This document shows, piece after piece, positions 25 through 45,824 of a stretch of 49,628 bases of DNA (position 1 is the stretch's first letter; each line of letters begins with the position of its first letter). A program made the position numbers and the translations under genes. The notes under the pieces were generated by a model, which saw only the letters and a list, made by a program, of their open reading frames with translations, did no database searches and was not told where the DNA came from. The stretch lies in sequence record PZ721903.1; one strand, written 5' to 3'. The DNA is from a phage.

Positions 25-549
25 ATGAGTGAACATAAAAACGCTCCCGTTGTTCAGGGAGGTAATTTCAAAGAGCTATACAAGAAAAAGTTCGGCACTG
101 TTCTTGCTAAGAATCGGGCAATGACGCCTGAGCAACTATTCGATCTGTCAGTTAAGTATTTCGAATGGGCTGAAGACAATGCGATCAAGGCTTCTGAGTC
201 TGCCAGCTTTCAGGGTGGCGTTTATGAATCGCTAGTTCATAAGCCGCGCGTCTTCACCTGGACCGGATACCGACTATTCATCGGTGCAAGCGAGGCCGCA
301 ATCATTAAGTGGAAGCGAGAGGAAGAATACAGTGAGGTTATGGAGTTTGTGGAATCGGTAATCAACGAGCAAAAATTCCAGCTTGCCGCCAACGGTGTTA
401 TTAACGCCTCATTTATCGGTAAGGATCTCGGAATCGACAAGCCAGCCTCAATCAATATCGAAAACTCGTCAGCTTCCGCATCGACCGCTGTCGCCACTAC
501 TGAGGACGCAATGAAAGAGGCTGTAAACAGTATTCTTGACATGCTTTAA
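25..549 (+). CDS. terminase small subunit (putative)
   Basis: First gene upstream of the large terminase; ATG at 25 follows RBS aaagagga; the ATG at 1-3 lies inside the junction copy of the palindromic box. Identity from position only. Confidence 0.5.
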   Translation: MSEHKNAPVVQGGNFKELYKKKFGTVLAKNRAMTPEQLFDLSVKYFEWAEDNAIKASESASFQGGVYESLVHKPRVFTWTGYRLFIGASEAAIIKWKREEEYSEVMEFVESVINEQKFQLAANGVINASFIGKDLGIDKPASINIENSSASASTAVATTEDAMKEAVNSILDML

Positions 550-587
550 CGTTACGGGCGCGCAAGCGCCCATACAGGAGAATTGAT

Positions 588-2156
588 ATGATTCAATGGG
601 AAGAACTCGACGCAACTCAGAAGTTGGCGATCAAAAAAATGAGCGAGGCCAATTTCGAAAAAATGATTCGGATCTGGTTTCAGCTTATGCAGGCTCAGCA
701 GTTCCAGCCTAACTGGCATCACCTTTACCTATGTCACGAAGTGGAGGAAATTATTGCAGGCCGACGCGGTAACACTATCTTTAACGTCACGCCAGGCTCC
801 GGTAAAACTGAGGTGTTCTCAATTCACCTTCCGGTGTACGCAATGCTCAAGTGTAAAAAGGTGAGAAACCTTAACGTGTCGTTTGCCGACAGCTTAGTTA
901 AGCGTAACAGTAAGCGTGTCCGTGAGATTATCAGCAGCAACGAATTTCAAGAGCTATGGCCTTGCAAGTTCGGTACATCGAAAGACGAGGAGATGCAGGT
1001 TCTTAATGAAGACGGAAAGGTTTGGTTTGAGCTAATCTCCGCAGCGGCTGGTGGTCGTATTACTGGTTCGCGTGGTGGGTACATGATGCCAGGATTCTCA
1101 GGTATGGTAATGCTCGACGATATCGACAAGCCTGATGATATGTTCTCAAAGGTTAAGCGTGAGCGTACGCACATGCTATTGAAAAACACCATTCGATCCC
1201 GTCGTATGCATAACGAAACGCCAATTATCGCAATTCAGCAGCGACTACATGCTCAGGATTCAACCTGGTTCATGATGAATGGCGGGATGGGTATTGAGTT
1301 TGACCAAATCTCAATCCCGGCGCTGGTGACGGAAGAATACGGAAAGACACTTCCTGATTGGTTGCAGCCTTACTTTGAGCGTGATGTTTTATCGTCTGAG
1401 TATGTAGAATTGGATGGCGTTAAGCATTACTCTTTTTGGCCCAGCAAGGAAAGCGTTCACGACCTGTTAGCCTTGCGAGAAGCTGATCAGTACACCTTTG
1501 ACTCTCAGTATCAGCAGAAGCCGATCGCGCTTGGTGGCTCCGTGTTTAACTCGGAGTGGTGGACCTATTACGGCAGCAGCCTTGACGCTGACGAGCCAGA
1601 TCCTGGTAAATATGATTACCGTTTTATCACAGCAGATACCGCTCAGAAGACGGGTGAGCTAAACGACTACACGGTCTTTTGTTTATGGGGTAAGAAAAAC
1701 GATAAGGTTTACTTTATCGACGGCATTCGCGGCAAGTGGGAAGCGCCTGATATGGAGAAACAATTTACCGCCTTTGTGAATCAGGCATGGAGGCACAATA
1801 AATCAATGGGCGTGCTTCGCAAAATCTACGTGGAAGATAAAGCGAGCGGAACGGGCTTGATTCAGAACTTAAGGAAAAAGACCACGATCTCAATTACACC
1901 ATTGCAACGTAACAAAGATAAAGTTACCCGAGCGATGGATGCGCAGCCAGTTATTAAGGCCGGGCGTGTAGTTCTTCCAGAAGAGCACCCTATGCTTGCG
2001 GAAATCATCGCAGAGCATAGCGCTTTCACATATGATGACACACATCCGCATGATGACATTGTCGATAACTTCATGGATGCGGCGAACATTGAATTGCTGA
2101 CTATTGACGATCCTATTGAGCGAATGAAGCGACTTGCCGGGATGGTTAAGCGGTAA
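588..2156 (+). CDS. terminase large subunit
   Basis: 522 aa; ATPase N-terminal region and C-terminal nuclease-like region (DTAQKTGELNDYTVFCLWG); RBS caggag before the ATG. Confidence 0.85.
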   Translation: MIQWEELDATQKLAIKKMSEANFEKMIRIWFQLMQAQQFQPNWHHLYLCHEVEEIIAGRRGNTIFNVTPGSGKTEVFSIHLPVYAMLKCKKVRNLNVSFADSLVKRNSKRVREIISSNEFQELWPCKFGTSKDEEMQVLNEDGKVWFELISAAAGGRITGSRGGYMMPGFSGMVMLDDIDKPDDMFSKVKRERTHMLLKNTIRSRRMHNETPIIAIQQRLHAQDSTWFMMNGGMGIEFDQISIPALVTEEYGKTLPDWLQPYFERDVLSSEYVELDGVKHYSFWPSKESVHDLLALREADQYTFDSQYQQKPIALGGSVFNSEWWTYYGSSLDADEPDPGKYDYRFITADTAQKTGELNDYTVFCLWGKKNDKVYFIDGIRGKWEAPDMEKQFTAFVNQAWRHNKSMGVLRKIYVEDKASGTGLIQNLRKKTTISITPLQRNKDKVTRAMDAQPVIKAGRVVLPEEHPMLAEIIAEHSAFTYDDTHPHDDIVDNFMDAANIELLTIDDPIERMKRLAGMVKR

Positions 2157-21127: not shown

Positions 21128-21150
21128 GCCCCTTTCGGGGCTTTTCTTTT
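21126..21150 (+). terminator. late-operon terminator
   Basis: agcccc-tttc-ggggct followed by tttctttt after the last tail gene. Confidence 0.65.
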
Positions 21151-21376
21151 ACATCGAGCAATCGTGAGACTTGAAGTTATTCTCTGATACGTAATGGAAT
21201 GAGAATGGATACCCAGCACGTAACAGCATCTCATCACCGCGCATCTTTGATCCAAAAACGGAAACCGAGTACTCTGCGTCACCTGATTCATAAATCGCAG
21301 TACAAGTGCGATCAGGCATCGATGAGCAACCAGTCAGGATGAATGCCGCAGCAATAATGGTGATTAATTTTTTCAT
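21149..21376 (-). CDS. cor: Cor-like superinfection exclusion lipoprotein
   Basis: Start at MKKLITIIAAAFILTGCSS (lipobox LTGC) behind RBS gagga; small lipoprotein encoded antisense just downstream of the J-like gene, as in T1/phi80/N15-type phages. Confidence 0.55.
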   Translation of the reverse strand: MKKLITIIAAAFILTGCSSMPDRTCTAIYESGDAEYSVSVFGSKMRGDEMLLRAGYPFSFHYVSENNFKSHDCSM

Positions 21377-21442
21377 TTGCATGTCCTCGTCGTTAGTGTG
21401 ATTGCATTGTATGTCGCATTTACTTTTATTGCAATAGCGCAA

Positions 21443-33071: not shown

Positions 33072-33135
33072 GTTGTATCAAGTAAATTTGAAGGTTAAAA
33101 TCGACTCACTTGTTCAAAAAATATATGGTGAGATT

Positions 33136-33351
33136 ATGAAAGAATTTTTAACAGCAGCTACGTCAAGCACGGGCGGTGCTTCATTAGTCGGGGCCGCTAC
33201 CGGGCAACTTTATATTGCTGGCGCTACATTCATTTGCTTTCTGCTTTTTGGTGCCTGGGGTGCATACTGGAAGTATCGTGATAGTAAGGCAATTCAGGAA
33301 GCGTTAAACGATGGCGATCTAAATAAGGCGCTTAAGATCAGGGGGAGATAA
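33136..33351 (+). CDS. holin (possible pinholin)
   Basis: 71 aa with hydrophobic core [21 protein letters not shown] and charged C-terminus; directly upstream of the SAR endolysin with ATGA overlap; start ATG 33136 rather than the TTG at 33073. Confidence 0.6.
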
Positions 33352-33839
33352 TGAGCTTAAAAAATAACGTTATAGGCGCATCGATCGGGGCTGCTTTGAC
33401 GTTGACACCCACCCTACTGGAACGAATCGAAGGTATAGAATACGAGGTGTATTACGATATAGCCGGAGTCCCTACCGTATGCAGCGGAATAACCGGGCCG
33501 GACGTCATACCTGGTAAGAAATACACTAAGCGAGAATGCGATGCATTGCTGATAAAACATATCGGCGTCGCTCAGCGATACGTTGACAAAAAGGTGAATG
33601 TTGATATTCCGGTAACGATGCGCGCGTCACTGTACAGCTTCACTTTCAACGTTGGAACTGGCGCGTTCGGATCTTCTACAATGCTTAAGCTAATAAATCA
33701 GAGTAAGCACAAGGAAGCGTGCAATCAGTTATGGCGATGGGTATACTACTACAACCCAAAAACCAAAAAGCGAGAAGTGTCTAGAGGACTCAAGAACCGA
33801 CGCGCTGAAGAATACGCGTATTGCGTTAAGGAATTATGA
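33351..33839 (+). CDS. SAR endolysin (T4 lysozyme-like, GH24)
   Basis: N-terminal signal-anchor-release-like segment [17 protein letters not shown] followed by the E...D...T catalytic region ([26 protein letters not shown]). Confidence 0.8.
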
Positions 33840-34240
33840 TGAAACTGAAGAAAACGTGCATTGCGATTACAGTGGCTGTTGGTGTTATTTCTCTATCCGG
33901 TTGCTCTACGGCATCTGCCCTGAGCGGTTTAATCGGATCTAAACCGGAAGTTACAGCACAAATCGGAGAGGAGAACACAAAGCAATTAGCAGGAGTAACC
34001 GCAAAATCCGAAGATAAGCGAGATGTTAAAGTTGAGAAGTCCAATGTAGGAAAGATTGACTCTTCCTTGAAGAAGTCAATTGAAGTGTCAACCATTAAGG
34101 CTAACACGGTTAACGCTGAAAGCATCACAATAACAAAGCCAGAAAACTGGTACGATGCAATTGTAGGATGGACTCTCGTTTTCATTGGCCTATTGCTGGT
34201 TTATTTTTCAATTCGTAAGGACGAAAAAAAAGGAGGCTAA
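33836..34240 (+). CDS. unimolecular spanin (lipoprotein with C-terminal TMD)
   Basis: Lipobox ISLSGCS at the N-terminus and C-terminal [25 protein letters not shown], the architecture of T1 gp11-type u-spanins. Confidence 0.7.
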
Positions 34241-40493: not shown

Positions 40494-40896
40494 CGATTAC
40501 ACTTTACCTTGTCACAGATGTAATATTTGTCTAGAATCGCACTTGTGACAAAATTACACACTGTGACGCCTCTAAATATACATATAGATATATGTATCTA
40601 TATAATATATATAGTGTTTTCTTTATTTATATATATAGATAATTATATTGTAATAGTTGTGTATAGTTGTCTTACATTGTCTAGCGTACTGTTGGCATAT
40701 TTCTATCTGCATGTTTATATATACAGTACTTTTTTGAGAGCTATATATTTCTATAGTGACTCTAGACAGCTAGACAAATGTTACACAGCTTAATATCGGC
40801 TCGCAGTCATTGACAGCTCTGTATCGCACTGTCACAATGTCAATTGTTGACACATTATGACGCCATTTACACACGAATAGACAAAGAGGATATATT

Positions 40897-41412
40897 ATGA
40901 GCAATACCAATCAGGAATTAAAAATCACCGATATGATTCGCCTAACCTGCGACGCAATGTATCGCGACAAAGGCATGAGTGAGTTCTCTTTCGTGGCTGA
41001 TGATATGGCCCTGGAAGGCGCACGATTCTACTTCCGTGGCCAGGAGGTAAGCGATAGCGATCTTGAATCTGCCGCTGCCGGATGGGTGGACCAGAACCAG
41101 GGTGAGGTGGAGAAGCGATTCAAGTCTGCTTTCATTACGCCAATCATTACCCGGCACTTTTGCAAGTATGGCAAGGTGGCAAAGGTGAAGGTAGGCCGGA
41201 ATGACGCTGCAATCACAATGATAACGGTTATCGTTACCGACGAAGAGATTCCCGTGAAGAAGCGCCGCAGCCGGAAAAAAGTTAGCCTGGCCGACTGCCT
41301 GGATTCGTTTGATGTTGATGTTGGCAAGCTATCGGATAGCGAGTTAATGGTTCGCGACGTGAATGAGATCGTACGCCAGATGAAAGCACATATCGAAAAG
41401 TGCGGGCTGTAA
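40897..41412 (+). CDS. hypothetical early protein
   Basis: 171 aa, RBS aagagga; first gene of the rightward early operon. Confidence 0.55.
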   Translation: MSNTNQELKITDMIRLTCDAMYRDKGMSEFSFVADDMALEGARFYFRGQEVSDSDLESAAAGWVDQNQGEVEKRFKSAFITPIITRHFCKYGKVAKVKVGRNDAAITMITVIVTDEEIPVKKRRSRKKVSLADCLDSFDVDVGKLSDSELMVRDVNEIVRQMKAHIEKCGL

Positions 41413-41426
41413 CGCTGATAGGTGAA

Positions 41427-41445
41427 ATAGCACTTTTTGTTAAAG
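41427..41445 (+). promoter_or_regulatory. palindromic box + tattat
   Basis: atagcactttttgttaaag, hairpin cccggtcgagcggatcggg, tattat. Confidence 0.55.
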
Positions 41446-41502
41446 CCCGGTCGAGCGGATCGGGTATTATCTTCTCATTGACACGATACAGAGGAATCGA
41501 AG

Positions 41503-41697
41503 ATGGAAACGCAAATTGACGTAGTGGTTGTTCAGCGAGACTCAACTCATGAAAAGGGTCTGTTCAAGAAAGGAACCGAAATCACGATCGACCTTGAGGA
41601 TATGGTTGCGTATCACTCTGGCCTCACTTGGAACGTGGTGCGCGTAGGCAGCGACTACAAACTCAAAGGCTTTAACACTTACTTTGCGGAGGTTTAA
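41503..41697 (+). CDS. hypothetical protein
   Basis: Cassette upstream; RBS gagga. Confidence 0.5.
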   Translation: METQIDVVVVQRDSTHEKGLFKKGTEITIDLEDMVAYHSGLTWNVVRVGSDYKLKGFNTYFAEV

Positions 41698-41699
41698 TT

Positions 41700-42170
41700 A
41701 TGGCGACAATTACCGTATTTCTTGCTAAAGATGAGCTTGATGGCGAAATGTCATTCTTCGCGTTTGAGCATAAAACCGGCTCGCACTGGCACACTTACAG
41801 CCATTACACGGTTATCTCAATCGAAGCGTACGACGGCGAACTGCTCACTGATAAACTGAGTAATTTCATTGAAGCCGTTAAAGCTAGCGGCGGCTGCGAG
41901 TGGAAGGAAGATCACGAAGTTATGCGAATGTTTGAGATGGTCAATCCGGTTCGCCTTGAGTCGTTCGAGCTTGATGCTAATGTGACTATCAAGGTGAGAA
42001 AGTCGGGTGAGTTATTGCCAGGGATGCGTGTACTGACTGGTTACTCTGGCCGTAAGGTGTGGCGCACTGTATCCAAGATTCGCCAGCGCTCGGCAACATG
42101 CTATAGCGTATTCTTTGATGATGGTTGGAATATGATGTCCGGTAGTGAGGTAAAGTATCTCACCAAATAG
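41700..42170 (+). CDS. hypothetical protein
   Basis: 156 aa; stop TAG lies in box copy 42167. Confidence 0.5.
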   Translation: MATITVFLAKDELDGEMSFFAFEHKTGSHWHTYSHYTVISIEAYDGELLTDKLSNFIEAVKASGGCEWKEDHEVMRMFEMVNPVRLESFELDANVTIKVRKSGELLPGMRVLTGYSGRKVWRTVSKIRQRSATCYSVFFDDGWNMMSGSEVKYLTK

Positions 42171-42186
42171 CACGAATTGTTAAAAC
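42167..42186 (+). promoter_or_regulatory. palindromic box + hairpin-embedded TATAGT
   Basis: atagcacgaattgttaaaac; 22 nt; TGcTATAGT inside ggggta...tacccc; CATCGAAACGA; CCAATCAGAGGAAT. Confidence 0.65.
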
Positions 42187-42248
42187 CTGATCGGGGTATC
42201 TTGCTATAGTTACCCCATCGAAACGAGATACCAATCAGAGGAATAACC

Positions 42249-42479
42249 ATGTCAATCGTCAAGAACCAGCAAGCCATCGATTCAACCAACAACAACCGCT
42301 TTGCTATTTTCATCACTCGCGACAACAAGCGTTTTGCGGTCAAGGTAGTACCGGGTGGATACAATACATACATGGAAGGTAACGGAAAATGGGTTCGGTG
42401 TGACAACCTCTCAAACTTCCTGGTCTGGAATGCAGAACTCCAGGGATTTGATGATATCAGCACTTTAATTGAGGAGTAA
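42249..42479 (+). CDS. hypothetical protein
   Basis: Complete cassette upstream (box, hairpin around TATAGT, CATCGAAACGA, CCAATCAGAGGAAT). Confidence 0.5.
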   Translation: MSIVKNQQAIDSTNNNRFAIFITRDNKRFAVKVVPGGYNTYMEGNGKWVRCDNLSNFLVWNAELQGFDDISTLIEE

Positions 42480-42484
42480 TAATC

Positions 42485-42712
42485 ATGCCACGTTACAGCA
42501 ACCTAACTCAACTAACCCGCGTCAACGGGCACATGATCCCGGCTAAATCTACTCACTGCGCGAAAGGCGCAAAGCACGGATTATATTTCAAGTGGCGCGG
42601 CCAATGGAACTTCACAGCTGTGAATAATTTCTACATGCGAGTTCCAGGTGATGACCCGCAATCAGTAGTAGAAAACTCAATCGGTGACAACAAGATCGAG
42701 GTACTAAAATGA
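42485..42712 (+). CDS. hypothetical protein
   Basis: 75 aa ORF in operon. Confidence 0.45.
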   Translation: MPRYSNLTQLTRVNGHMIPAKSTHCAKGAKHGLYFKWRGQWNFTAVNNFYMRVPGDDPQSVVENSIGDNKIEVLK

Positions 42713-42819
42713 ACTTTAATACAGTAGCGCTATGGTCTGCCGTCTGGTTCTTCTGCATGGGTCACGTCATGGTCGGCATCGTGGTAATGCTTCTCCTGTG
42801 TGCGGGGGCGTTCGAATGA
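42709..42819 (+). CDS. small membrane protein (36 aa, one TMD)
   Basis: Below the track cutoff; MNFNTVALWSAVWFFCMGHVMVGIVVMLLLCAGAFE; ATGA coupling at both ends. Confidence 0.35.
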   Translation: MNFNTVALWSAVWFFCMGHVMVGIVVMLLLCAGAFE

Positions 42820-42989
42820 TGCGTATATTGATTTGCATGATGGCTGCTGTCGCCCTGACTATCCTGGTAGTGTCCGGCTGCGGCGAGGTCAAAGAGCGAT
42901 GCCATGAAACCGGGAGCCAGGTTACTACTTTCGTGATGGTTGGCAACGTATTGCTACCAATCACATCAAATGAAATCACTTGCGAATAG
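42816..42989 (+). CDS. small lipoprotein (57 aa)
   Basis: Start ATG 42816 behind RBS ggggg; signal peptide with lipobox VVSGC (MMRILICMMAAVALTILVVSGCGEV). Confidence 0.45.
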   Translation: MMRILICMMAAVALTILVVSGCGEVKERCHETGSQVTTFVMVGNVLLPITSNEITCE

Positions 42990-42998
42990 GATGTTAAA

Positions 42999-43190
42999 AT
43001 GGCTGATTTTATGCACCAAATGATTGCAGTATTCAAATGTAGTGATGACCAGGAAGTTAAAGAGTGCTTCACCGTTGACAAGCCTTATAACGCATCGCTA
43101 ACCAGCTTCGGGAACATCTCATTGCTTGATGATAATGGCGACCCCTGGATATTCGACGAAGACACCGATTGCTTCGAAATTAAAGAATAG
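42999..43190 (+). CDS. hypothetical protein
   Basis: 63 aa; stop TAG inside box copy 43187. Confidence 0.45.
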   Translation: MADFMHQMIAVFKCSDDQEVKECFTVDKPYNASLTSFGNISLLDDNGDPWIFDEDTDCFEIKE

Positions 43191-43206
43191 CACTTTTTGT
43201 TAAAAA
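43187..43206 (+). promoter_or_regulatory. palindromic box + hairpin-embedded TATAGT
   Basis: atagcactttttgttaaaaa; TATAGT within ggggtt...aacccc; CATCGACAACGA. Confidence 0.65.
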
Positions 43207-43261
43207 TAAATTCCGGGGTTGCGATATAGTAACCCCATCGACAACGAACGAGGACGATAGC

Positions 43262-43750
43262 ATGAAAATCAAATTAATTTGCACTGGCGGTTACAAGGGA
43301 TTTACCCGAGATCTGGAAGCGGACCCTATCGTGGTTGATGCGGTGAAGTGTGATTCCAGTACTGGAGGCTACCGTGTTAAGGTTGACGATCTGGTAAAAG
43401 CTGGCGTGTACGATCTTGATTATGGGCTTTCGGTTAGCCCGGTATTTGGTCCGGCCGACTTCAACGAGAAAGACGGAACGATGTTCTTTTTTGAGTGGGA
43501 AGTGCAAGCGAACGTCAAGCCTCGTAAGGTTCGACTTCTCAACAATGGCGGCTACCCGATGAGACCAGGTTATGAGAATCGCACGTTCCCAGTTATTGTG
43601 GACTTCACCGAAATCACTAACAAACTGGTCTACGTCAGCAATGAGCATTTCCAGGCTGTAGGATTCACTGGCGGTATGCATAAAGAAGCGCTGTGCTTCG
43701 TTCGAGAAGAAATGCACGGTTACTATTCTGAGTGCGAGTTAGTTTACTAA
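43262..43750 (+). CDS. hypothetical protein
   Basis: 162 aa; cassette upstream. Confidence 0.5.
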   Translation: MKIKLICTGGYKGFTRDLEADPIVVDAVKCDSSTGGYRVKVDDLVKAGVYDLDYGLSVSPVFGPADFNEKDGTMFFFEWEVQANVKPRKVRLLNNGGYPMRPGYENRTFPVIVDFTEITNKLVYVSNEHFQAVGFTGGMHKEALCFVREEMHGYYSECELVY

Positions 43751-43767
43751 GAACGAATTGTTAAAAG
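43748..43767 (+). promoter_or_regulatory. palindromic box copy (degenerate) + TGgTATAAT
   Basis: aagaacgaattgttaaaagg; TGgTATAAT within gggga...tcccc. Confidence 0.5.
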
Positions 43768-43821
43768 GGGATTTGGCCTGACTGGTATAATCCCCGCATA
43801 AACCACTAAGAGGAAAGCATC

Positions 43822-44328
43822 ATGTTAAAATTAGAAGACGTAAAATTCCCGATTAAATTTATCAGCCTGGGTTGCGGTGAAATTACATTCACCAGTGAAG
43901 ATAAAGGCAAGTTGGCCACTGGTGAGGTGTCTCAGCTTAAGTTGGATTGGTTTATCAATCGGCACAATGAAGTAAATCCTGAAAACTCAGCCAAGAAGGA
44001 TTACCATTACATTATTAGTTGTAGTTATGATGCGTACGGAAAGTATGATGGTTGGAAAACTGATCGATCCATCTTCCACCCCTCAAAGCCAGAAGTCGAG
44101 CCATCGCTACAATGCACTCAGATCGAGAACATGCCATTGAGCGCTACGCTAAAGGGCGTCCAACTTGATAGCGAATCCTGGGCCGAGATTACAGCCACAC
44201 CTAAAACTATTGAGGTACATGATGATGTGGTGATTCTCCTGTTGCATTACGGCAGCTTTAAGCACAAAACGGTATCAGGTGAAATCAGCATTAAGCGCGG
44301 AACGCTTGTACGATATGAGGTGAAATAA
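43822..44328 (+). CDS. hypothetical protein
   Basis: 168 aa; cassette with TGgTATAAT upstream. Confidence 0.5.
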   Translation: MLKLEDVKFPIKFISLGCGEITFTSEDKGKLATGEVSQLKLDWFINRHNEVNPENSAKKDYHYIISCSYDAYGKYDGWKTDRSIFHPSKPEVEPSLQCTQIENMPLSATLKGVQLDSESWAEITATPKTIEVHDDVVILLLHYGSFKHKTVSGEISIKRGTLVRYEVK

Positions 44329-44477
44329 TGGCTGCGTGGGTCTTGATTATCTTGATGAGTACCGGTCCGGATCACGTATACATGGAAAGTCAGCAATCAT
44401 GCAACAAGGCTCGGGAGGTGATTTCAGAGAACAAGCCGTTCGGATACGAAGTAAAAACGATGTGCGTTAAACGATAG
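44328..44477 (+). CDS. small hypothetical protein (49 aa)
   Basis: Below track cutoff; TAATG overlap, RBS gaggtga; stop TAG in box copy 44474. Confidence 0.35.
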   Translation: MAAWVLIILMSTGPDHVYMESQQSCNKAREVISENKPFGYEVKTMCVKR

Positions 44478-44493
44478 CACGAATTGCTAAACC
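44474..44493 (+). promoter_or_regulatory. palindromic box + hairpin-embedded TATAGT
   Basis: atagcacgaattgctaaacc; TGaTATAGT within aaggcca...tggcctt; CCAATCAGAGGAAT. Confidence 0.65.
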
Positions 44494-44557
44494 TTCCGCA
44501 AGGCCATTTGATATAGTGGCCTTATTGAAGCAGAGCGACCAATCAGAGGAATCGGCT

Positions 44558-44689
44558 ATGAAAATCAGATTAACCAGTAGCTACTTTAACCGTGAATCTT
44601 TCAATCAGTACATAATCACAGACGGAATGAATACAGGCATCGTCCTTGATGTATCCCACAGGCGACGTTATGTTTGTATCAGCAACTGA
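44558..44689 (+). CDS. small ORF behind a complete cassette (possible 5' part of a frameshifted gene)
   Basis: ATG 44558 is the one positioned by the CCAATCAGAGGAAT RBS; 43 codons; overlaps the next ORF, which is in the +1 frame. Confidence 0.3.
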   Translation: MKIRLTSSYFNRESFNQYIITDGMNTGIVLDVSHRRRYVCISN

Positions 44690-44852
44690 GCTTGCAAAGT
44701 ACGCAAAGCCAGAACATCGCCACCTGGCAGAGCCGCACTTGAGCGATGGAAAGGTTACAGATTACGCATTCACCAAAGGTGAGTATGAAATCGTGAGATC
44801 TGGACCTTTCAGATTCTGGAACAAACTTAAATCAGGGGAGTTATTCAAATGA
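44649..44852 (+). CDS. hypothetical protein (start uncertain)
   Basis: Track ORF 44646..44852; no convincing RBS of its own. Confidence 0.35.
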   Translation: MYPTGDVMFVSATELAKYAKPEHRHLAEPHLSDGKVTDYAFTKGEYEIVRSGPFRFWNKLKSGELFK

Positions 44853-45136
44853 GCAAAACTCATAAGTTAAAAATCGCCCCTGTACATTTCATTGGTGTAA
44901 TGAACGGAACCAAAACGGCAGAGTTCCGCATCAATGACCGAAACTTCCAATCTGGCGATATCCTGGAGCTATGCGAGTTCGATCGAGATGAGTTTACCGG
45001 GTGGGAAGTTCACGCCAGGGTATCCGATGTTACCGATGTGACGCCATACATCAATCGCGGGTATGACGAGCAAGAATGCGACTTCACGCAATACGTGATG
45101 TTATCAATCAAGCCTTACAGGAAGGTTAGACCATGA
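44849..45136 (+). CDS. DUF3850/ASCH-like domain protein (putative)
   Basis: N-terminal KLKIAPVHF...KTAEFRINDRNFQSGDIL pattern resembles ASCH/DUF3850 proteins. Confidence 0.45.
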   Translation: MSKTHKLKIAPVHFIGVMNGTKTAEFRINDRNFQSGDILELCEFDRDEFTGWEVHARVSDVTDVTPYINRGYDEQECDFTQYVMLSIKPYRKVRP

Positions 45137-45771
45137 AATTTGAATGTGTGCTTAGTAACGGATCTGGATTTAAGTACGGCAAAATCTACGAAGGCGCTCG
45201 CGTCAATTGCAACAGCTTCGTTATCACGGATGAGCGCGGTAGAAATGTTAACGTTGTCCGGCGTCACGAATACCAGGAAATTTTCCTGCCGTACGGCAAT
45301 AGTTCAAAATACATCTTCCATCGAATCGTTGATGGTGTTAAATTTAAAGACGTAATCGAAGCAATCAACCAACTTCATAATAAAGAGGTAAAATTTATGA
45401 AATTCGAATGTATCAGCGATAACACCAAAAAATTTACTGTTGGCAAAATTTACGATGTTCCCTCTGAGCACGCTAAGCACACGGCTGTAATTACCGACGA
45501 CACGGGCCGCCACCGCATTGCAACCGTAACGCACAACGGTGAAGGTCTTCGCTGGAATAGCGGCGGCACTAAGTTCGCAACGTTCGGCAAGAAGCGCAAG
45601 CGCACTTTCTGCGTCAAGGGCAATGTTGCGGCGAACAAGACCCACAACGACAAGGCGTCACAAGTTGACCGCAAGCCAGCATTGAAGTTTGAAGAGAAAG
45701 CGGATTTATCCGGCCTGGCTGTTGCGCTTGTTCTCCTGGTAGCTTCGATTTCGCTGATGTTCATCATGTAA
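45133..45771 (+). CDS. membrane-anchored protein with internal tandem duplication
   Basis: Two homologous units (MKFECVLSNGSGFKYGKIYEG... and MKFECISDNTKKFTVGKIYDV...) and C-terminal TMD LSGLAVALVLLVASISLMFIM. Confidence 0.5.
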   Translation: MKFECVLSNGSGFKYGKIYEGARVNCNSFVITDERGRNVNVVRRHEYQEIFLPYGNSSKYIFHRIVDGVKFKDVIEAINQLHNKEVKFMKFECISDNTKKFTVGKIYDVPSEHAKHTAVITDDTGRHRIATVTHNGEGLRWNSGGTKFATFGKKRKRTFCVKGNVAANKTHNDKASQVDRKPALKFEEKADLSGLAVALVLLVASISLMFIM

Positions 45772-45824
45772 TTTTAACGGGGAATCGGATCTGAACGGTT
45801 CCCCTTTCTTTTGGAGAAAACACT

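Follow-up and report, generated by a model that had tools for sequence, protein, structure and literature searches.

Cor (of T1, phi80 and N15) and Llp (of T5) are small outer-membrane lipoproteins which inactivate FhuA after infection. Injection blockers tethered to membranes include the lipoprotein Ltp of the S. thermophilus phage TP-J34, the transmembrane (TM)-anchored Sie2009 of lactococcal phages, T4 Imm and HK97 gp15, and in two-component spanins such as lambda Rz/Rz1 the gene of an inner-membrane protein overlaps that of a small lipoprotein. The locus analyzed here recalls all of these. It is located in the phage sequence PZ721903.1, a stretch of 49,628 nucleotides which was analyzed as a whole and is referred to as the window, and it comprises two overlapping genes on the plus strand: TM36, a peptide of 36 amino acids (aa) with a single transmembrane domain (TMD; 42709..42819; MNFNTVALWSAVWFFCMGHVMVGIVVMLLLCAGAFE), and LP57, a 57-aa prolipoprotein (42816..42989; MMRILICMMAAVALTILVVSGCGEVKERCHETGSQVTTFVMVGNVLLPITSNEITCE). 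TM36 is the orthologue of T1 ORF73 (phrog_25570) and LP57 that of T1 ORF72 (phrog_8628); in T1 and related phages both had previously been listed as hypothetical proteins, and our finding is a rediscovery of ORF73 and ORF72. The reading which we tentatively favour, while giving it slightly less than an even chance, is that TM36 and LP57 are two genuine, non-essential accessory genes of a gene cluster in the left arm of the genome, that they represent separable modules, and that a tethered hairpin formed by LP57 acts at the cell envelope.

The 1.8 kb around TM36 and LP57 show 99.8-99.9% identity to the Escherichia phages phiD2-2 and vB_EcoS_SH2 and 87-92% identity to many further T1-like phages, and by this similarity the window belongs to the genus Tunavirus of the family Drexlerviridae. 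The T1 proteins ORF73 (AAP49927, 36 aa) and ORF72 (AAP49928, 57 aa) are 83% and 89.5% identical to TM36 and LP57, respectively, and their genes show the same order, the same ATGA junction and the same position after a DUF7274 gene; nothing substantive differs between the two regions, except that the window adds a downstream 63-aa open reading frame (ORF) which is absent from T1. ORF73 is annotated in T1 as 'single transmembrane domain predicted N-in and C-out', whereas the phiD2-2 annotation lists both genes as hypothetical proteins and the SH2 annotation contains the 57-aa gene only. In tblastn searches, TM36 and LP57 were adjacent and joined by the same junction in 56 of 56 matching phage records, all of them Tunavirus-type Escherichia or Shigella phages.

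An inspection of the sequence and its ORFs recovered the 36-aa and 57-aa frames that a previous sequence-only reading of this DNA had proposed. Short ORFs are common here (73 ORFs of at least 25 aa in 5 kb) and the presence of an ORF alone is not significant; for this reason coding was tested by the pattern of substitutions. Among 13 T1-like sequences, TM36 read in its own frame had a ratio of nonsynonymous to synonymous differences (pN/pS) of 0.12 and LP57 one of 0.15, a value shared by the adjacent DUF7274 gene; read in alternative frames, the two gave ratios of 1.1-3.0. These ratios are pooled pairwise counts over related sequences and thus descriptive, though the contrast between frames is large. 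Length, start and stop of both ORFs are conserved over orthologues of 83-100% identity. Each gene has its own Shine-Dalgarno (SD)-like sequence, GAGG at 42698..42701 and GGGGG at 42804..42808, the latter within the TM36 coding sequence; both lie on the plus strand 7 nt upstream of the respective start codon, and for both the T1 annotation gives a ribosome-binding site, in the case of TM36 at the equivalent position. On this comparative evidence TM36 and LP57 are genuine genes under purifying selection in their own frames. That they are chance or decaying ORFs without a protein product might be suggested by their very small size, by the many comparable ORFs that arise by chance, and by annotations such as that of SH2 which omit TM36; such an explanation is hardly credible in view of the frame-specific purifying selection, the conserved gene boundaries, the individual SD sequences and the presence of hairpin homologues far outside the genus. 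An 85-aa extension of the LP57 frame, starting at 42732 in an ORF track with a 60-aa limit, was rejected, as the added part showed a pN/pS of 3.0 and is interrupted by stop codons in two relatives (L009 and L012); the sequence-only reading had thus been right that this track placed the LP57 start wrongly.

The ATGA overlaps described in the same reading are present as well. The start codon of TM36 (42709) overlaps the TGA (42710-42712) of the DUF7274 gene, and the start codon of LP57 (42816) overlaps the TGA of TM36 (42817-42819), so that TM36 has an ATGA junction at either end; LP57 shows no overlap at its 3' end, and the next ATG is found at 42999. Overlaps of 4 nt are routine in this genome, however, the phiD2-2 annotation placing them at four of the 13 junctions between same-strand genes in this region, and the ATGA overlap is therefore weak evidence for a functional pair.

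TM36 consists largely of one hydrophobic stretch of about 30 residues that contains neither Lys nor Arg (maximum KD19 2.46) and carries a conserved Gly-His at its middle; the inner membrane is its most likely destination. Its profile match to phrog_25570 (E 5.4e-27) covers residues 1-36 with synteny maintained, it occurs in the same 56 phage records as LP57, and 21 of its 36 positions are invariant even against the divergent locus L026. In a scan of viral contigs TM36 was seen in T1-like phages only. The peptide may act independently as a small inner-membrane effector. As cited by others, Keweloh and Bakker are said to have described in 1984 early changes in membrane permeability after T1 infection, and one could imagine that TM36 is an active element which perturbs the inner membrane in the manner of a type I toxin, a holin or antiholin, or a regulator of a membrane protein, and which contributes to these changes with LP57 being independent of it. 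The strong conservation of TM36, its long core without basic residues and its better retention than LP57 in the deletion variants L010 and L027/L028 would agree with such an activity. We nevertheless consider it unlikely, given that TM36 shows no homology to a characterised peptide (no family in Pfam or NCBIfam; phrog_25570, of unknown function, as sole family match), that it is missing from the locus L018, and that the literature accessed ties the T1 permeability change to no gene.

LP57 starts with a predicted type II signal peptide (residues 1-21) followed by the lipobox V-S-G-C (together 42816..42881, plus strand), in which Cys22 (codon 42879-42881) is the putative lipid-bearing residue. 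The protein fits both the PROSITE PS51257-like pattern and the G+LPPv2 lipobox pattern (MMRILICMMAAVALTILVVSGC), its Arg3 is followed by hydrophobic residues 4-18 as n-region and h-region, and AlphaFold2 (AF2) predicts a helix at residues 2-19. The lipobox conforms to [LVI][ASTVI][GAS]C, and Cys22 is at least 90% conserved among 19 cluster representatives; exceptions are DELF2 (C22F), SH6 (VSVC) and the proteins P0021 and P0027, which have no lipobox. The Shfl1 orthologue carries the UniRef name 'Lipoprotein'. The single TMD and the lipobox of the sequence-only reading thus both withstood examination, the former by the hydrophobicity maximum of TM36 and the latter by the two lipobox patterns of LP57. 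Over its entire length (residues 1-57) LP57 matches phrog_8628 (E 6.9e-29) with conserved synteny after the DUF7274 gene in T1 and 12 further loci; no Pfam or NCBIfam family was found. From these motifs we infer that LP57 is lipidated on Cys22, and most of its variants would be sorted to the outer membrane.

The mature part of LP57 is predicted to form a simple fold. AF2, applied to the LP57 family alignment, placed behind the signal helix a single beta-hairpin with strands at residues 29-42 and 45-56 (pLDDT 71-84 in the hairpin). This domain, Cys29..Cys56 (42900..42983, plus strand), has a G43-N44 turn, and its tip, FVMVGNVLLPI, is hydrophobic on both faces. No sequence of the Tunavirus alignment departs from Cys29 and Cys56, and distant relatives have Cys at the aligned positions; since the two residues are invariant and are located at the two open ends of the hairpin, a stapling disulfide is the natural reading, and a Cys29-Cys56 bond would thus close the modelled hairpin. 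A Foldseek comparison of the LP57 model with the PDB gave nothing below E 1, and sequence-profile searches of the PDB with the LP57 family and with its relatives of about 100 aa gave nothing relevant, LP57 having no match at E up to 10.

Natural variants bear on the question whether TM36 and LP57 belong together. In the metagenomic locus L010, TM36 is kept and LP57 has been lost together with the 63-aa ORF through a deletion that ends at a repeat element. In L027 and L028, two independent assemblies (about 49.9 kb) of a naturally occurring T1-like phage, TM36 is also kept, and codons 1-37 of LP57 are fused to the C-terminal membrane tail of the downstream gene equivalent to 45133..45771 in the window, which encodes a 212-aa protein; the hairpin and the intervening genes are gone. 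The resulting fusion protein P0028 (4001..4312 in L027 and likewise 4001..4312 in L028) retains the signal peptide and the first hairpin strand. The reverse situation is found in L018, where an LP57 homologue directly follows the DUF7274 gene without TM36. P0021 and P0027 have no lipobox, yet they have kept the hairpin and both Cys, and P0027 still has TM36 upstream. The existence of variants without lipobox, without TM36 or without LP57 indicates that the hairpin is conserved while its anchor is exchangeable, and also that both genes are dispensable and that each is able to exist without the other. As far as can be read from these sequences, the variants show TM36 and LP57 to be dispensable and separable, and the two are most likely non-essential accessory envelope proteins. 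The idea, derived from L018, that loss of the lipobox is coupled to loss of TM36 was rejected, because L026 pairs TM36 with a hairpin gene lacking the lipobox.

The functional pair suggested by the sequence-only reading is weakened by these variants, as L010 and L027/L028 retain TM36 without a functional LP57, L018 shows the opposite, and no conserved TM partner was found outside the T1-like phages. In its strictest form, such a pair would be an obligate envelope complex of TM36 in the inner and LP57 in the outer membrane, either spanin-like or injection-blocking, whose stoichiometry is set by translational coupling. An arrangement of this kind would explain why the genes are adjacent and share the ATGA junction in all 56 isolate genomes and in L026, and a 41-aa TM peptide is encoded directly upstream of the hairpin gene, with a GTGA overlap, in the distant relative L019. 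It is nonetheless highly improbable. Practically no part of TM36 lies outside the membrane and mature LP57 comprises 36 residues, so that the two cannot bridge the periplasm; single-partner variants exist, other distant relatives have upstream genes for non-membrane proteins, overlaps of 4 nt are common in the genome, and the phage has its own unimolecular spanin (u-spanin). The likeness to Rz/Rz1 is thus confined to the overlap of a gene for an inner-membrane protein with that of a small lipoprotein: TM36, with its 36 nearly all hydrophobic residues, has no periplasmic coiled-coil domain as in an i-spanin, LP57 is not proline-rich and is encoded outside the lysis cassette (holin, endolysin and u-spanin; 33073..34240), and no homology to spanins was found. 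The separation of the two genes from this cassette had been proposed before and is confirmed by its location.

The hairpin of LP57 extends beyond the T1-like phages. A HMMER scan of 1.84e9 representatives detected three small lipoproteins, P0024-26, with E values of about 5e-4 and alignments over the hairpin; hhalign of the mature domains only, after removal of the signal peptides, gave a probability of 97.3% with both Cys aligned, and in reciprocal tblastn searches the best phage matches of P0025 were Tunavirus genes. The contigs that carry the P0024-26 relatives have a GC content of 57-68%, and the relatives are encoded there within extended series of small genes that overlap and lack annotation. 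On L019, a soil contig of 68.5% GC, four small overlapping genes follow one another (462..1154); P0025 closes the series, and each of the preceding three codes for a predicted membrane peptide (52, 81 and 41 aa). A conserved upstream TM partner in the distant relatives was considered and rejected, as it was seen at L019 only (the 41-aa peptide with the GTGA overlap); the upstream partner is a zinc-finger-like protein at L024 and a non-membrane protein elsewhere. No prophage copy of the high-GC relatives turned up when genomic contigs were scanned, and a homologue search with P0030 returned only P0030 itself.

A metagenome scan added an 81-aa lipoprotein (40% GC) and a 71-aa TM-anchored form (48% GC), and small hairpin lipoproteins on uncultured contigs thus cover 40-68% GC overall. 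TM-anchored hairpins are encoded in L018, L026 and L050. The 71-aa form is 81-91% identical to genes of IsaakIselin, JohannLBurckhardt and Enterobacter phages, which are located beside a polynucleotide kinase gene; the receptor of IsaakIselin is YncD (PMC8594841). The same scan yielded lipoproteins of 99-108 aa (31-38% GC) with the motif TTYVMxGKVMVPIT. These relatives of about 100 aa match phrog_6716 and phrog_4392 and, weakly, phrog_8628, and they occur in Streptococcus and Thomasclavelia phages. Members of phrog_6716 and phrog_4392, lipoproteins of about 100 aa with unknown function, carry the motif at the same distance from the lipobox as LP57.

Receptor masking, one of the roles proposed in the sequence-only reading, is disfavoured by several of these observations. 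LP57 would in this case be a second masker of the Cor/Llp type in the inner leaflet of the outer membrane, inactivating FhuA or the phage's own receptor from the periplasm, and TM36 would be an unrelated neighbour. The window encodes Cor at 21149..21442 on the minus strand, beside the tail-tip genes and together with two upstream membrane-protein genes; it is not part of the locus described here, and the FhuA-blocking role is already filled by it elsewhere in the genome. LP57 lies about 21 kb from Cor in the left-arm cluster and not in a receptor-binding or tail-tip locus. An hhalign comparison of LP57 with the window's Cor reached a probability of 5.7% and aligned the signal peptide alone, the PHROG search gave no Cor (phrog_1119) homology for LP57 (phrog_8628 being the sole match), and no PDB sequence or fold match was obtained, including the Llp-FhuA entry; no PDB chain of Llp was matched. 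What LP57 has in common with Cor and Llp is that it is a small phage lipoprotein whose lipid Cys precedes two further Cys flanking the mature domain, and for Cor the layout is the same in detail: the second Cys comes seven residues after the lipid Cys, and the third stands 2-3 residues before the C-terminus. This is a resemblance in design, with no evidence of homology, and small phage lipoproteins may repeatedly use a disulfide to tie together the two ends of their mature domain. In contrast to Cor and Llp, the mature domain of LP57 is about half the size, its gene is away from the receptor-binding genes, the anchor type of its relatives is interchangeable, and such relatives are found in a YncD-specific phage and, at the motif level, in Streptococcus phages, whose hosts have no outer membrane. 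Receptor modules and exclusion genes travel with the locus of the receptor-binding protein (RBP) (PMC13164509), whereas the hairpin homologue of the YncD-specific IsaakIselin is located beside the polynucleotide kinase gene. Masking thus appears very unlikely despite the canonical lipobox with a non-Asp residue at +2 in most LP57 variants, the Cor-like cysteine layout and a gene position that suggests early expression; moreover, the sorting signal varies, with an Asp at +2 in IME18 and the lipobox missing from L018, L026 and L050.

The flexible anchor, the homologue in a YncD-specific Drexlerviridae phage and the motif relatives in phages of Gram-positive hosts together argue against FhuA masking, and they appear to agree better with a membrane-tethered binder that acts on the envelope from its periplasmic or outer face. 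By analogy, the anchor flexibility and host range of the hairpin family would fit the pattern of the injection blockers best, which are likewise small phage proteins fixed, through a lipid or a TM segment, to the outer surface of the cytoplasmic membrane. A role in the exclusion of competitor phages, one of the functions considered in the sequence-only reading, would be plausible, and the takeover of the host membrane that it also considered may be another. The PDB profile and fold searches, the sole homology test made against these blockers, gave nothing relevant, and Ltp, built of helical repeats, differs from the single beta-hairpin modelled for LP57.

Under the reading of two separable accessory modules with a tethered hairpin, TM36 and LP57 would be co-transcribed and read through the ATGA junctions, yet would not constitute an obligate two-component system. 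TM36 would insert into the inner membrane as one hydrophobic helix without basic residues. LP57 would be exported via Sec and probably lipidated on Cys22 by Lgt, LspA and Lnt, and its periplasmic part of 35 residues would be a single hairpin tied by the Cys29-Cys56 disulfide, presumably formed with the help of DsbA. The hairpin would be the conserved functional unit and a minimal version of a domain that is tethered by a lipobox or a TM anchor in other phages. Held at the membrane, it may bind a putative component at the periplasmic face of the envelope, probably by strand addition, and thereby alter an envelope step relevant for competition, such as the DNA entry of a second phage or an envelope-associated host function; the phage's own receptor would not be masked by LP57.

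Several points weigh against this reading. The AF2 model of LP57 is moderately confident (mean pLDDT 71, pTM 0.30) and is based on a shallow alignment. The compartment is ambiguous, as most variants predict outer-membrane sorting and several relatives are TM-anchored, and the Asp at +2 of the IME18 protein is a classical inner-membrane retention signal. The co-occurrence of both genes with the same overlap in every isolate genome and in the divergent L026 makes a functional link possible. The Streptococcus-phage proteins are linked to LP57 at the motif level only (E 6e-4 to phrog_8628), and the literature searched contained no functional or expression data on T1 ORF72 or ORF73.

TM36 and LP57 are part of a co-directional cluster of small genes in the left arm (40897..45771), which also contains genes of nucleotide metabolism; in T1, ORF73 and ORF72 are both located within the annotated 2.8-kb terminal repeat. 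The cluster is preceded by an AT-rich non-coding region (40509..40838, plus strand) with three sigma-70-like promoters matching at 10/12 positions, a number that shows no excess over the shuffle expectation, and it ends at an intrinsic-terminator-like hairpin with a T-run (45779..45804, plus strand). The sequence-only reading had placed both genes in an early operon; the co-directional cluster agrees with this, while the timing is deduced from position and the promoters do not exceed the shuffled background. Early expression of TM36 and LP57 is thus presumed from gene position and the sigma-70-like promoters.

The cluster is subdivided by copies of an intergenic repeat element, which consists of AATAGCACnnnTTGnTAAAA, a short inverted repeat and (G)ATATAGT and has 15 matches in the window compared with 0.6 expected (at 41426, 42166, 43186, 43747, 44473, 46121 and about nine more sites, on both strands). 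Two copies frame a five-gene cassette (42249..43190) that holds TM36 and LP57: a direct-repeat copy at 42166..42210 (plus strand; AATAGCACnnnTTGnTAAAA ... TATAGT) forms its 5' border, and one at 43186..43230 (plus strand) its 3' border. The latter also marks where the deletions of T1 and L010 end, the gene-cassette deletions of both stopping at repeat elements. The spacing between the TTG and TATAGT boxes of the element is about 22 nt and thus too long for a standard sigma-70 promoter. The same direct repeat has been described in phage TLS, where its role is unknown (PMC11447400). Within the cassette, TM36 is preceded by the 75-aa DUF7274 gene (phrog_6080; 42485..42712, plus strand), and the last gene is the 63-aa ORF (phrog_11551; 42999..43190, plus strand) that is absent in T1 and L010.

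Further downstream in the same cluster, the phrog_24939 gene (44516..44852) shows a 5-nt deletion (ACATT) near 44660 relative to phiD2-2, which leads to a frameshift; phiD2-2 and L018 have it as one uninterrupted frame of about 99-113 aa, while it is split here into two overlapping ORFs (44516..44689 and 44646..44852). Unless the deletion is a sequencing error, the gene is a pseudogene in this phage. Two other genes of the cluster encode candidate envelope proteins, namely a 49-aa ORF (44328..44477) whose product is hydrophobic at its N-terminus and contains two Cys, and whose first codons are similar to the signal-peptide DNA of LP57 (repeat family D5), and the 212-aa protein with a C-terminal hydrophobic tail (45133..45771).

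With respect to the biology of T1-like phages, two tempting misreadings of this locus, as another receptor blocker of the Cor type and as a pair resembling spanins, are removed, and the functional unit is narrowed to a disulfide-closed hairpin of 28 residues at a membrane surface that recurs beyond the T1-like phages with different anchors. The apparent breadth of this tethered-hairpin family is the one point that could raise the importance of the finding. It is conceivable, if rather doubtful, that LP57 is a minimal disulfide-stapled member of a large phage superfamily (phrog_8628, phrog_6716 and phrog_4392) which spans Gram-negative and Gram-positive hosts and in which a conserved beta-hairpin (TTYVMxGKVMVPIT), fastened by exchangeable anchors to the outer face of a membrane, serves as a new and widespread means of envelope interference. 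If this were true, the members would hit a shared step, which might be the passage of DNA through the cytoplasmic membrane or might involve a conserved component of the cell wall or of secretion. Identification of a target, if there is one to be found, would provide a function for several PHROG families and a very small, possibly synthesisable peptide scaffold acting at the envelope.

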